Shown in pieces: positions 5,456 to 15,607 of a DNA stretch of 15,607 bases (the first letter of the stretch is position 1; the number at the start of each line of letters is the position of its first letter). Below the pieces are notes generated by a model. That model was not told the DNA's origin, ran no database searches, and was given only the letters and a program-made list of their open reading frames with translations. Source of the stretch: Nanobdellati archaeon (GTDB taxonomy: Archaea > EX4484-52 > WAPT01); the NCBI GenBank assembly GCA_015520605.1, contig WAPT01000003.1:1-15607 (forward strand). The letters are read 5' to 3'. Position numbers and translations under genes: made by a program.

Positions 5456-6886
5456 TCAGCCCTTTATGTTGCCGATTGGTCTGAGTCTCGCAACCTTGGT
5501 TGAGAGCATGGCATGATGCACACTCTCGATCACTTCATTCACATCCTTATACGCTTCGGGAGCCTCCTCAGCAACACCCGGCATTGAATGAGCCCTAACA
5601 TATATCCCCTTCTGAGCGAGCATCCTTATTACCTGTTCACCCCAGAACTTCTTCTTAGCCTGCGTTCTTGACATCCTTCTGCCAGCGCCATGGCATGTGG
5701 AACCAAAGGCTTTCACCATACTCTCCTCCGTGCCCACAAGAATGTAAGAGCAGGAACCCATACTCCCCCCGATAATAACGGGCTGACCCACACTCCTGTA
5801 TTTTGCTGGTAGTTCTTTTCTACCCGGTCCGAACGCTCTCGTTGACCCTTTCCTGTGCACATAGAGCTTCTTCTTTTTCCCGTCAACTTCATGCTCCTCA
5901 ATTTTACATGTGTTGTGTCCTATGTCGTAGAGGGTTCTGAGATCCTCTCTCGGAAATATTTTGCTGAAGGCTTTTCTTGCGAGATGCGCTATCACCTGTC
6001 TGTTGGCAAAAGCGTAGTTTATACCACAGCACACAGCTGCAAAATATTTCTGCCCCTCAGGACTATTGATTGGAGCGCACACGAGCTCCTTCTCCTTTAT
6101 CTTTATACCGTACTTGCGTGATGCTTCAGCAAGAACTTTCAAGTAGTCCGTACCTATCTGGTGTCCTAAGGCACGTGAACCACAGTGAAAGGTTATGACG
6201 ACCTGTCCTTCAAAGAGACCAAAGACCTTTGCAGCTCTCTCATTATAAATTTCATCGACAACCTGCACCTCGAGATAATGATTCCCGCTTCCGAGGGTGC
6301 CAACCTGACCGCGTTCCCTTTTTATTGCAGTCTCGCTAACAGCTGATGGATCCGCTCCCTCAACTCTACCGTTTTCCTCCGTGTATTCAAGATCATCATC
6401 CGTACCATATCCCTGCTCAACGACCCATCTTGCACCCTCTGTAAGCACTTCATTGACCTGAGCTCTGGTCAGCACTATCTCCCCCCTTGAACCTAGGCCA
6501 GCCGGTACAGTCCTGAAAAGCTCATCCACAAGCTCCTTTATTTTTGGCCTAACGTCCCGTTCCGTAAGGTTAGAAATCATGGTTCTAACTCCGCAGTTTA
6601 TATCAAAACCCACTCCGCCTACAGACACCACGCCACCTTCATCCGGATCAAAGGCAGCAACACCGCCTATCGGAAAGCCGTAACCCCAGTGACCATCTGG
6701 CATTACGAGTGAGGTCTTGACTATGCCGGGCAGGCATGCAACATTGCTGCACTGCTCGTAAACTTTCTCGTCCATCTCCTCCACTACCTTCTTCATCCCG
6801 AAAATTCTGCCCGGAACATTCATCTCCCCCTGTTTTGGAATCTCCCACTCGTAATCATTTATGCGTCTTAGCTTTGAGAGATCCAT
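5456..6886 (-). CDS. rtcB: tRNA-splicing RNA ligase RtcB
   Basis: MPDGHWGYGFPIGGV, GFDINCG, GTLGSGNHYLE, HCGSR, GHN, VHRKG, HGAGR and EEAPEAYK motifs, with no intein. The start is placed at ATG 6886, 5 nt after the SD GAGGTGA (6898-6892). Confidence 0.97.
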   Translation of the reverse strand: MDLSKLRRINDYEWEIPKQGEMNVPGRIFGMKKVVEEMDEKVYEQCSNVACLPGIVKTSLVMPDGHWGYGFPIGGVAAFDPDEGGVVSVGGVGFDINCGVRTMISNLTERDVRPKIKELVDELFRTVPAGLGSRGEIVLTRAQVNEVLTEGARWVVEQGYGTDDDLEYTEENGRVEGADPSAVSETAIKRERGQVGTLGSGNHYLEVQVVDEIYNERAAKVFGLFEGQVVITFHCGSRALGHQIGTDYLKVLAEASRKYGIKIKEKELVCAPINSPEGQKYFAAVCCGINYAFANRQVIAHLARKAFSKIFPREDLRTLYDIGHNTCKIEEHEVDGKKKKLYVHRKGSTRAFGPGRKELPAKYRSVGQPVIIGGSMGSCSYILVGTEESMVKAFGSTCHGAGRRMSRTQAKKKFWGEQVIRMLAQKGIYVRAHSMPGVAEEAPEAYKDVNEVIESVHHAMLSTKVARLRPIGNIKG

Positions 6887-7041
6887 AACCATCACCTCAA
6901 TAAAACTTGTCGTGGAAGCTTTAAGAAAATTGTCATCTCGAAACTCTAAAACCGAGAGACTTTTCTAAGAACTTTTGATATATATTTGCTTTTTAACACA
7001 ATAACACAACCATATTAACAACACTATTAAACACGCAGTGA

Positions 7042-13736: not shown

Positions 13737-15029
13737 TCAGCAGCAATACATCTTATCGAGCTCAAGAGCATCCAAATTCTCAACTTTACCGAAGGGATTG
13801 CCATACTTCCTTGTGTTTTCAATCATCTCAACGTTGGATGTGAGCTCAAACTTATTCCTCACGCATTCTTCTCTTATTTTTCTTACCATTTCCGGAATGT
13901 TTATCCTGAGAGGGCACATTTCCCTGCATGCTCCGCAGGTTGTGCAGAGGTACACACCTCTATCGAACGCTTCCTTCAGACCTTCAAAACAGTAAGTTTT
14001 AACTATTCCTATCCCGCCGTGGTAAGCATCTCCGCCATAATTGTTCAGCAAGACTCCATATACAGGGCAAGCGGCAAGACATGCGCCGCAGTTAATGCAG
14101 TACAGAGCCTCCCTGAACTCAGAATTAATCATTTTACTCCGTCCGTTATCCACCAGCACCAGATGCACTTCCTTTGGGCCCTGAGCACCCACAAGCTTCA
14201 CTCCTCCTATATCCGCGGTTGCGCTAGGAGAACTTATAACGTTTATGTAGGATGGCATATGTAATCCAGTCCCCCAGATGGACTGTACCTTGCATATAGT
14301 CATCGCGTCTTCCAGAGTTGGCACGATTTTATCGATCGTCGCAACAACCACATGCTTTTCTGGCAGCCTTGACACAAGGGATATGTTGCCCTCATTCTCA
14401 AGAATAACAATTGCACCTCCAGCCGTCAGAACGTTTGCTCCCGTTATTCCAACGCGCGCTTTCGTTATCCTTTCCCTCAGGTAGCTCCTTACGAATGTGA
14501 GAATGCTCTCCGCACTTTCCTCCACTTTCGCTCCCGTCTTTTGCCGGATCTTTTCCACAATTTCATTTAGCCTTATGTGGGCCGCCGGCAACACAGGATG
14601 TATATCTTCTTCCTCACACAGTTCCACCAGAAAATCTCCGCAGTCCGTTTCCACAACCTCAATACCTTCACTTCTCAAATATTCAACAAGGCGGATTTCT
14701 CTCATCACATTGGATTTGGATTTCACAACAATACTCTCGTTTCCGATTATTTCCCGCACGATTTCTCTTGCTTCCTTGCTGCTGGACGCTTCATGAACTC
14801 TTATCCCGCTCTTCTCCATCTTTCGTATCATTTCCTTTTTGAGATCATTTAGGTTGTTTATTGAGAACTCTTTTATGTGTCTCACTTTGTCTTTGAGAGC
14901 ATCAGCATCGGTTTCTTCCAGAACCCGCGATAGAGCTATCCTGTAATTTTTCAAGGAGGTTCCGAAAACATCCCTTTTATCTTTGAGTCTCTTATCTTCT
15001 AGAAGCTTTTTGACCGTATCGTTATCCAT
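13737..15029 (-). CDS. LUD-domain/2x[4Fe-4S] protein (LutB/LldF-like)
   Basis: VKSKS, VVETDCGD, HPVLPA, GITGAN, ENEGNI, ISSPSATADI and GAQGPKEVHLVLVDNGR motifs, with ferredoxin motifs CINCGACLAACP and CTTCGACREMCP. A TATA box TTATAAAA lies at 15062-15055, about 25 nt upstream. Confidence 0.9.
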   Translation of the reverse strand: MDNDTVKKLLEDKRLKDKRDVFGTSLKNYRIALSRVLEETDADALKDKVRHIKEFSINNLNDLKKEMIRKMEKSGIRVHEASSSKEAREIVREIIGNESIVVKSKSNVMREIRLVEYLRSEGIEVVETDCGDFLVELCEEEDIHPVLPAAHIRLNEIVEKIRQKTGAKVEESAESILTFVRSYLRERITKARVGITGANVLTAGGAIVILENEGNISLVSRLPEKHVVVATIDKIVPTLEDAMTICKVQSIWGTGLHMPSYINVISSPSATADIGGVKLVGAQGPKEVHLVLVDNGRSKMINSEFREALYCINCGACLAACPVYGVLLNNYGGDAYHGGIGIVKTYCFEGLKEAFDRGVYLCTTCGACREMCPLRINIPEMVRKIREECVRNKFELTSNVEMIENTRKYGNPFGKVENLDALELDKMYCC

Positions 15030-15155
15030 GTAACCTACTTATGAAGGAAACAACTTTTATAATTTGGTTGCAAAATGTGAAACTAAAGGACAAACACACC
15101 ATAACAATCCGGCAATGACAGTTTTCGAATGGCAAAATCTATCCTTTGCAAAAAA

Positions 15156-15178
15156 TTTTAAACTCATATACTATAATA
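15156..15178 (+). promoter_or_regulatory. Putative promoter of tRNA-Ser
   Basis: An A-rich BRE-like run followed by TTTTAAA (15156-15162), and a second candidate TATAATA (15172-15178), both upstream of the tRNA 5' end at 15200. Confidence 0.5.
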
Positions 15179-15199
15179 TTTAGAATTGCTGAAACACGT

Positions 15200-15316
15200 G
15201 CCGGGGTCGCATAGCCTGGCCAGTGCGCTGCCCTGGAGAGGCAGTGCCCGTAAGGGCGCGTGGGTTCGAACAGGCTAAATTTTTCAGAAGCCTCGAAAAT
15301 CCCACCCCCGGCGCCA
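15200..15316 (+). tRNA. tRNA-Ser(GGA) with 29-nt T-loop intron; CCA encoded
   Basis: Acceptor stem GCCGGGG/CCCCGGC, D stem GCA/TGC, anticodon arm CTGCC-CTGGAGA-GGCAG (GGA at 15235-15237), long variable arm GCCC-GTAA-GGGC, T stem GTGGG/CCCAC, discriminator G and CCA. Removing the intron restores the T loop TTCGAAT and gives an 88-nt mature tRNA. Confidence 0.96.
15271..15299 (+). other. Non-canonical tRNA intron at position 59/60 with strict bulge-helix-bulge motif
   Basis: GTGGG-TTCG-[AA^C]-AGGCT ... AGCCT-CGAA-[AA^T]-CCCAC: a 4-bp central helix, two 3-nt bulges and 5-bp flanking helices. Confidence 0.92.
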
Positions 15317-15359
15317 ATTCATAATAATAATAAAATCTTTTACCTTCCCATTCTTCTTC

Positions 15360-15607
15360 ATGCTCTGCGTGATAGGGGGAAGCGGACTGGAAAAGTTGTT
15401 CGAGGACAGTGAGGAATTTGAGATAAATACTCCCTACGGAACTGTTGTTGCATACAGGGTTAAATTTCCCGATGGTAAGGAGTTCTCTTTATTCCTCGTC
15501 ACGGCAAGGGACATGATGTTCCACCGCACAGGATAAACCATCATGCAAACATAATGGCCGCCAAACTTTCTAATGTTCGGATGGTTATCGGCGTTAACGC
15601 TGTCGGC
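15360..15607 (+). pseudogene. mtnP: MTAP/purine nucleoside phosphorylase family gene, 5' part, with a single-base frameshift near 15482 (pseudogene or sequence error); truncated by window edge
   Basis: Frame 0 reads MLCVIGGSGL...INTPYG...DGKE and stops at 15534-15536. The -1 frame continues VLFIPRHGKGHDVPPHRINHHANIMA...VIGVNAVG, which are the MTAP-family motifs. Confidence 0.8.

Follow-up and report, generated by a model that had tools for sequence, protein, structure and literature searches.

A tRNA-Ser(GGA) gene interrupted in its T loop

Positions 15200-15316 (+) of the window, by which we mean the whole 15,607-nt stretch of DNA analysed, very probably hold a functional tRNA-Ser(GGA) gene that is interrupted by a 29-nt endonuclease-type bulge-helix-bulge (BHB) intron between tRNA positions 59 and 60, and that is the sole gene for this tRNA found in the source genome. 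We put the probability of this reading at roughly 0.88, and we infer from the sequence that the transcript is cleaved and ligated, and in what order it is processed. The source genome is denoted G000 and its contigs C1-C24 and so on, with the window lying on C2.

A class II tRNA was apparent from reading the sequence and was called by ARAGORN once the insert had been taken out. Its cloverleaf comprises a 7-bp acceptor stem, a D arm, the anticodon loop CTGGAGA and a long variable arm, and its T stem (GTGGG/CCCAC) encloses 36 nt instead of 7. The features are as follows (window coordinates).

15173..15180, +: candidate TATA-like AT-rich box, a possible archaeal promoter judged from the sequence, 20-27 nt 5' of the gene
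15200..15270, +: 5' exon (acceptor 5' strand, D arm, anticodon arm, variable arm, T stem 5' strand, T-loop nt 54-59), from the ARAGORN cloverleaf after splicing in silico
15235-15237, +: anticodon GGA, from the sequence
15260..15305, +: hBHBh' motif, central helix with 4/4 pairs, h' with 5 adjacent pairs
15260-15264 / 15301-15305, +: outer helix, the T stem GTGGG/CCCAC
15265-15268 / 15294-15297, +: central 4-bp helix TTCG/CGAA
15269-15271, +: 5' bulge AAC
15271..15299, +: 29-nt intron between tRNA positions 59 and 60, from bulge geometry and in silico splicing
15272-15276 / 15289-15293, +: inner helix AGGCT/AGCCT, 5 bp
15277-15288, +: intron hairpin loop, 12 nt
15298-15300, +: 3' bulge AAT
15300..15316, +: 3' exon (T-loop nt 60, T stem 3' strand, acceptor 3' strand, discriminator G, encoded CCA)
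15313, +: discriminator G (G73)
15314-15316, +: encoded CCA

A preliminary description of this DNA had drawn these helices, bulges and the anticodon, and each was found in its place. It had also held that cutting after the second base of each bulge removes 15271-15299 and restores the T loop TTCGAAT. Indeed, deletion of these bases left an 88-nt sequence that ARAGORN called as tRNA-Ser(gga) with exactly this loop. On the unspliced 117 nt, ARAGORN called no tRNA. Default finders were likewise blank on the window (no tRNA by ARAGORN, nothing at gathering score by Rfam), as had been anticipated for default pipelines, and a genome-wide RF00005 search at E<=1 gave no match on C2, the contig that carries the gene. 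Annotation of this genome that rests on ARAGORN or the Rfam tRNA model undercounts its tRNAs.

The motif has the make-up of an archaeal hBHBh' element, with two 3-nt bulges, a 4-bp helix between them and 5-bp helices on both flanks. As in archaeal BHB introns, cutting at the bulges yields a canonical tRNA, and the host has EndA and RtcB genes. Because the focal motif is of the strict form, no relaxed endonuclease specificity would be needed. A cut at 57/58 or 58/59 (the 29-nt deletion shifted 1-2 bases to the left) would give the same mature sequence, so the assignment to 59/60 follows from the bulge geometry, the sole discriminator.

The fold and the motif were both compared with chance. The focal 117 nt had a minimum free energy of -58 kcal/mol, compared with a mean of -44.6 (sd 3.6) for shuffled sequences (z = -3.75; 0/200 shuffles as low). 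The minimum free energy fold is a register variant that is one pair off, in which the TTCGA/TCGAA helix has 5 bp and the inner helix 4 bp, and it keeps the two 3-nt bulges. Furthermore, a SPLITS-like scan was performed in which all strict 3-4-3 motifs with flanking helices of >=2 bp were collected, the predicted intron was removed and ARAGORN was applied. In the real genome, 116,399 candidates gave 47 ARAGORN hits spanning the junction, whereas 117,395 candidates from the reversed genome, used as control, gave 1. The scan also recovered the canonical introns of Leu CAA, Trp and Met in G000. Every computational test thus upheld the central claim of the preliminary description, a tRNA-Ser(GGA) with a 29-nt BHB intron at 59/60, from which splicing is predicted.

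Two other views of the 29-nt insert were considered. A guide-RNA reading was dropped, as C/D-box motifs were not seen by eye. Membership in a multi-copy intron family was ruled out, as no second copy within 3 mismatches was found in G000 or in the genomes G001 and G002 of the same genus.

The 59/60 site is used by at least nine tRNA genes of the genome

The preliminary description had proposed a survey of tRNA intron positions in the genome. When the BHB scan was combined with a relaxed scan and a search specific for T loops, an intron at 59/60 was found in no fewer than nine tRNA genes of this DPANN genome of 863 kb (intron coordinates are given).

Ala GGC, C1:21277-21325: 49-nt intron; 37/38 intron too
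Ser CGA, C1:28771-28796: 26-nt intron
Ser GGA, focal gene, window 15271-15299: 29-nt intron
Arg GCG, C10:19471-19487: 17-nt intron
Leu CAG, C13:20789-20838: 50-nt intron
Ser GCT, C14:31219-31255: 37-nt intron
Pro TGG, C22:28221-28279: 59-nt intron
Leu TAA, C24:41627-41657: 31-nt intron; 37/38 intron too; central helix TTCG/CGAG; no inner-helix pair adjoining the bulge
Ile TAT, C3:44903-44946: 44-nt intron; 37/38 intron too

In all nine, the 3' end of the intron pairs with T-loop nt 54-57, with 4/4 pairs in seven and 3/4 in two, and at least two inner-helix pairs adjoin the bulge in 8/9. The tRNA-Leu(UAA) gene shares the site with the focal gene and differs from it in having two introns, the TTCG/CGAG helix and no inner pair next to the bulge. 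The introns of the nine genes (17-59 nt) had no evident sequence likeness to each other, as judged by eye.

These genes change the apparent tRNA set of the genome. ARAGORN with its intron option gave 29 tRNA genes in G000, one of them a mis-call of the Ser GCT gene. Overall, 26-29 tRNA genes were counted by ARAGORN or the Rfam tRNA model, compared with at least 37 here once the eight newly found genes are added, nine of the 37 having T-loop introns. A second intact tRNA-Ser(GGA) had been named in the preliminary description as the observation that would speak against it; RF00005, ARAGORN, the BHB scan and the relaxed scan found no second tRNA with anticodon GGA in G000, which is 90.7% complete, and such a gene could lie in the missing part. 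In long open frames of G000, UCC is the most used of the UCN codons (12.5 per 1000) and UCU stands at 9.2 per 1000. Without the focal gene, the genome would look unable to read UCC and UCU, ~2% of its codons.

After all scans, the anticodons not found in G000 were Asp GTC, His GTG, Glu TTC, Lys TTT, Arg TCT/CCT/CCG, Thr CGT, Ala TGC and a third CAT. A relaxed BHB scan of GC-rich islands for the missing tRNAs added only Ile(TAT) and otherwise gave spurious re-splicing of known genes. The missing tRNAs may lie in the absent ~9% of the genome or may be more heavily disrupted. A separate locus, C3:34520-34649, was read by ARAGORN as Ser(tga) with a 35-nt intron and by the BHB scan as Leu(gag), in which a strict-BHB insert of 41 nt occupies 34566-34606. 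The Leu(gag) reading would put the insert just 3' of the anticodon stem, another non-canonical position.

A single one-unit EndA and RtcB as the predicted splicing enzymes

Genes for both predicted steps of splicing were identified.

5456..6895, - (window): RtcB tRNA-splicing ligase gene (PF01139, E = 1.1e-173, 578.8 bits)
C15:45492-46076 of G000: EndA gene, 195 aa (PF01974 92.3 bits, PF02778 59.8 bits, TIGR00324 94.9 bits, cut-off 59.6)

The architecture of EndA, which the preliminary description had wished to see determined, was that of a single one-unit, alpha4-like gene, with one N-terminal and one catalytic domain in a single polypeptide. The protein aligned end to end with the homotetrameric enzyme of M. 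jannaschii (1a79, E = 4.5e-32). In a phmmer search against 6,817 six-frame ORFs of G000, only the self match fell below E = 0.1, although such a search might miss a beta subunit that has diverged strongly. One further Pfam hit, and no more, was seen for the EndA domains; it (E = 0.156) fell in a separate 307-aa ORF, which we take from its HxHxDH motif to be of metallo-beta-lactamase type. A second subunit could also be encoded in the missing part of the 90.7%-complete genome. Across the phylum set, which comprised 42 genomes of one order, exactly one EndA match each was found in 36 genomes, and the other 6 had no match.

Compared with the M. jannaschii enzyme, EndA has a 7-residue insert, PYKRGEK, flanked by the residues that align with the catalytic Tyr and His. 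This insert aligned with those of two other enzymes, the alpha subunit of N. equitans (3iey) and EndA of ARMAN-2 (4fz2), and it was kept as NPYK-G-K in 30/30 phylum enzymes examined, family f2 included. As described in the accessible text of Kaneta et al. 2018 (PMC5829648), DPANN EndAs have an 'L3' loop in the C-terminus region, and alpha4 enzymes bearing L3 are linked to disrupted tRNA genes. We think that PYKRGEK may be this L3 loop, which the text of that paper locates no more closely than the C-terminus region. The idea that the insert tracks T-loop introns was rejected, as the 30/30 enzymes with the insert include those of f2, a family in which no genome had any match to the intron pattern described below.

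The preliminary description had tied non-canonical introns to broad-specificity endonucleases. This tie has to be hedged for the present genome. The single one-unit EndA is neither of the (alpha-beta)2 nor of the epsilon2 kind and the focal motif is strict; EndA does have the loop insert in common with the N. equitans and ARMAN-2 enzymes. According to the available part of Fujishima et al. 2011 (PMC3239211), typical alpha4 enzymes act on strict BHB motifs at the canonical position; that the one-unit EndA cuts at 59/60 is thus an assumption.

We propose the following course of processing. In the precursor, the T stem would act as outer helix, the 4-bp central helix would arise from pairing of T-loop nt 54-57 with the 3' end of the intron, and the intron hairpin would provide the inner helix. 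This 3-4-3 bulge-helix-bulge would match the one built by the anticodon arm around a canonical 37/38 intron. The single one-unit EndA, presumably as a homotetramer, would cut after the second nucleotide of each bulge, and RtcB, encoded 8 kb upstream in the same window, would join the exons to give the loop TTCGAAT. The T arm and the anticodon arm both have a 5-bp stem and a 7-nt loop, with the cut lying between loop nt 6 and 7, and in either arm an intron at this point whose 3' end pairs with loop nt 1-4 gives this motif; thus, 59/60 is the T-arm counterpart of 37/38, as judged from the geometry of the focal gene and from how the cited papers describe the motif. Since nt 54-59 would be sequestered in the precursor, the elbow between D loop and T loop would be expected to form only after splicing.

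T-loop introns are widespread in the lineage

Introns at 59/60 were sought across the phylum set with the pattern GGTTCRAA-N10-40-YGARAATCC, and the reversed pattern served as control. The pattern gave 76 matches in 23/42 genomes, and the reversed control gave 0 in all 42. Matches were found in 2/2 genomes of family f1 (G000 not counted), 8/10 of f3, 1/1 of f4, 10/16 of f6 and 1/2 of f8, and none in f2 (0/5), f5 (0/4) or f7 (0/1). When 51 of the 76 matches were fetched, 48 became an ARAGORN tRNA once the insert was removed and 3 did not. At least three inner-helix pairs adjoined the bulge in 25 of these 51 introns, compared with 5.7% of shuffled interiors; 17 had no inner-helix pair adjoining the bulge and represent relaxed forms.

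The Rfam tRNA model found 9-48 tRNAs per genome across 41 related genomes, with 17 in the 96%-complete G001. This undercount by the Rfam model is lineage-wide and would distort judgements of decoding capacity. Low Rfam counts were also seen in the nearly complete genomes G008 (11 tRNAs, 91% complete) and G009 (13, 95%). The 59/60 pattern had no match in G008, whose tRNA genes are therefore likely to be disrupted in other ways.

In genus g3 of family f3, one intron family of ~46 nt was found at 59/60 in twelve genes of five genomes, with seven anticodons (genes L046, L047, L049, L050 and L064-L071; genomes G020, G032, G004, G030 and G028). The hosts are the tRNAs Gln CTG, Gln TTG, Gly TCC, Glu CTC, Arg GCG, Arg TCT and Lys TTT. 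For the 59 pairs with different anticodons, the median identity of the introns was 0.85 (minimum 0.72), compared with 0.57 for the 5' exons. The inner hairpin of this intron is set back from the bulges, a relaxed motif. From these sequence identities, it looks like the intron spread between tRNA types. The focal gene alone is of modest interest, and the g3 intron family in its relatives is of greater interest.

A hexamer, GCAAGC, was noticed by eye inside the T-loop introns of different tRNA genes and families, in 6 of the 76 listed matches. These introns belong to G001, G005 and G033 (families f1, f4 and f6), and a longer stretch around the hexamer is common to G005 and G033. The recurrence suggests either an old common ancestry of introns or a functional element.

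The focal intron is probably one among many gained at a permissive 59/60 site in this lineage. A wider proposal, to which we give an even chance, is that 59/60 serves as a second 'canonical' intron site of the phylum as the T arm mimics the anticodon arm; introns would have been gained there repeatedly, the g3 intron would have moved as DNA into seven or more tRNA types, and all would be served by a one-unit alpha4-like EndA with a conserved loop insert. If this were true, intron mobility of the Thermoproteales kind would need no heteromeric or three-unit endonuclease, and the lineage would offer a natural series of substrates, from strict to relaxed, for one simple enzyme.

Relation to known disrupted tRNA genes

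T-loop introns of this kind are already known, also in DPANN, from the 59/60 introns of ARMAN-2. According to the available part of Fujishima et al. 2011 (PMC3239211), the ARMAN-2 pre-tRNA-Cys has a 13-nt hBH intron at 59/60 that is cleaved in vitro by a three-unit enzyme, and its pre-tRNA-Pro has strict BHB introns at 53/54 and 59/60. From what that paper shows, the two systems share a DPANN host, a T-loop intron at 59/60 and splicing of the BHB type, and the Pro gene has a strict hBHBh' motif as the focal gene does. They differ in that ARMAN-2 has a three-unit epsilon2 EndA and a relaxed hBH Cys intron that was cut in vitro, whereas here a one-unit EndA and a strict motif are known from the sequence. 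They differ also in that the present genome belongs to another lineage, from hydrothermal vents, in which at least nine genes use 59/60. Literature searches for this lineage or for DPANN-wide surveys of T-loop introns returned only the ARMAN-2 and EndA papers; the supplementary tables of PMC3239211 and PMC5829648 may list more.

The focal intron resembles canonical 37/38 introns in its 3-4-3 geometry, its 5-bp outer stem, the four loop nucleotides that make up half of the central helix, the cut at loop nt 6/7 and the expected use of the same enzymes. In contrast to these, its host is the T arm and not the anticodon arm, the unspliced precursor would be expected to have no elbow between D loop and T loop, and standard tRNA models fail on it. 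The archaeal mode of tRNAscan-SE 2 seeks non-canonical introns by default, but only in first-pass candidates, according to the accessible text of PMC8450103.

In Thermoproteales, many non-canonical introns at many positions and intron transposition have been described, together with an (alpha-beta)2 EndA with a crenarchaeal loop (Fujishima et al. 2010, by way of the accessible parts of PMC4090602 and bioRxiv 10.64898/2026.10.13.758758). As far as these accounts extend, the present lineage is similar in its many non-canonical introns per genome and in having one intron family across tRNA types (in the sister family, g3). It differs in that one site dominates, EndA is one-unit and the focal intron has no second copy at <=3 mismatches in the three genomes of its genus. 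At the level of sequence identity, the g3 pattern matches the signature that these accounts take as intron transposition in Thermoproteales, here with a one-unit endonuclease. The available text of Kaneta et al. 2018 (PMC5829648) raises the question whether the loop insert, and not the subunit architecture, widens the substrate range. With a single one-unit EndA and many 59/60 introns from strict to relaxed, the lineage is a clean test system for the part of loop insert as opposed to subunit architecture.

The variable 3' flank and the persistence of the intron

A second path through the 3' flank was found on contig C10. Its first 70 nt (C10:1-70) repeat the last 70 nt of the gene; C10 diverges right after the CCA, runs through an 837-nt insert (C10:71-907, L011; noted against window 15317-15331) and then matches window 15318-15607 at 96%. 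The 837-nt cassette contains a 55-aa basic ORF without a Pfam match and a 198-aa PIN-domain ORF (PF01850, E = 1.2e-7), and the variant also occurs in the public run X3 of another study (record 9). Many contig ends of this assembly overlap, and C10:1-70 is therefore attributed to a strain-variant branch; an att duplication from an integrated element was rejected as its source.

Downstream of the tRNA, an ORF starting at 15352 was assigned to the phosphorylase superfamily from its C10 copy (PF01048, E = 1e-39). In the window, this ORF is frameshifted at ~15482, where one T is missing; the extra T is present in the C10 copy and in the X1 and X3 contigs. Lying at the contig end, the frameshift probably reflects an error or a minor variant.

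The preliminary description had suggested that the insertion could protect the gene against integration. In that case, the intron would persist since integrases could no longer use the 3' half of the tRNA gene, now split, as a target; the idea concerns persistence and does not conflict with splicing. It has been published (an idea of Randau and Soll, as cited in the accessible part of PMC4090602), and the 3' flank of the gene is variable, with the cassette of the co-occurring variant placed directly after the CCA. However, the cassette is placed beyond the gene and contains no copy of any tRNA sequence, the 3' half of the tRNA was not found duplicated in the manner of an att site, and neither an integrase nor an integrated element was seen at or near the gene; the one PF00589 (tyrosine recombinase) match of G000 is on another contig, C15. 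No integration event came to light by which tRNA genes with and without introns might be compared. Related introns at 59/60 in seven tRNA types of the sister family also fit the spread of introns better than gene-by-gene selection. We found no support for protection and regard it as improbable.

Conservation of the interrupted gene in related genomes and public DNA runs

The reading as a functional gene with a predicted intron is supported by the two other genomes of the genus. In G002, the ortholog has 97% identity, also over the 5' exon, and its intron is the same 29 nt with two single-base changes, which fall in the 5' bulge and at the inner-helix end. In the 96%-complete G001, the 5' exon is 89% identical and the exons overall are nearly the same as in G000, with three compensatory pair changes in the anticodon stem; these two-sided changes indicate selection on the folded tRNA. 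At 59/60, the G001 ortholog likewise has an intron, of 45 nt and unrelated in sequence, with the junctions kept (TTCG...CGAG, 3' bulge AAT). Its motif is relaxed, with a small internal loop that sets the inner helix back from the bulge, so that EndA, if this intron is spliced, must tolerate more than the strict form. T-loop introns are also present in the Ser(TGA) and Ser(CGA) genes of G001, whereas Ser(TGA) of G000 is without one. The Ser(GGA) genes of three genomes of the neighbouring family f2 (G003, G010 and G019) have no intron. The 3' CCA is encoded in G000 and G001 and not in the G002 ortholog (L005).

This conservation bears on whether the gene is instead dead or decaying after being hit by a random insertion, as the failure of standard finders to call it might suggest. 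The insert, however, sits exactly where a 3-4-3 BHB forms, and its removal gives a perfect cloverleaf. The exons are kept across the genus together with compensatory stem changes, the same arrangement recurs in eight other genes of G000, and no other decoder of UCC and UCU was found in that genome. A dead gene is thus very hard to reconcile with the data.

The intron-containing gene was also found on assembled contigs of four public DNA runs from three studies. A contig of run X1 covered 14900-15382 with 0 differing letters. In the contigs of runs X3 and X7 (~90% alike, from other studies), the differences listed included one in the gene, 15276 T>C, as in G002, and more than 30 over the 300 nt upstream of it; with 23 further differences outside the listing, these counts are lower bounds. 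A DNA joint lacking the intron was found in none of the contigs of the four runs. An assembly artefact or chimera is next to inconceivable: although the gene lies 291 nt from the contig end, C10 begins with a copy of the gene's last 70 nt and many contig ends of the assembly overlap others, the X1 contig is identical, X3 and X7 carry the same gene with its insert, the independent genome G002 has it too, and C10 rejoins the window as a strain-variant path. The best-matching DNA runs are labelled as hydrothermal vent metagenomes.
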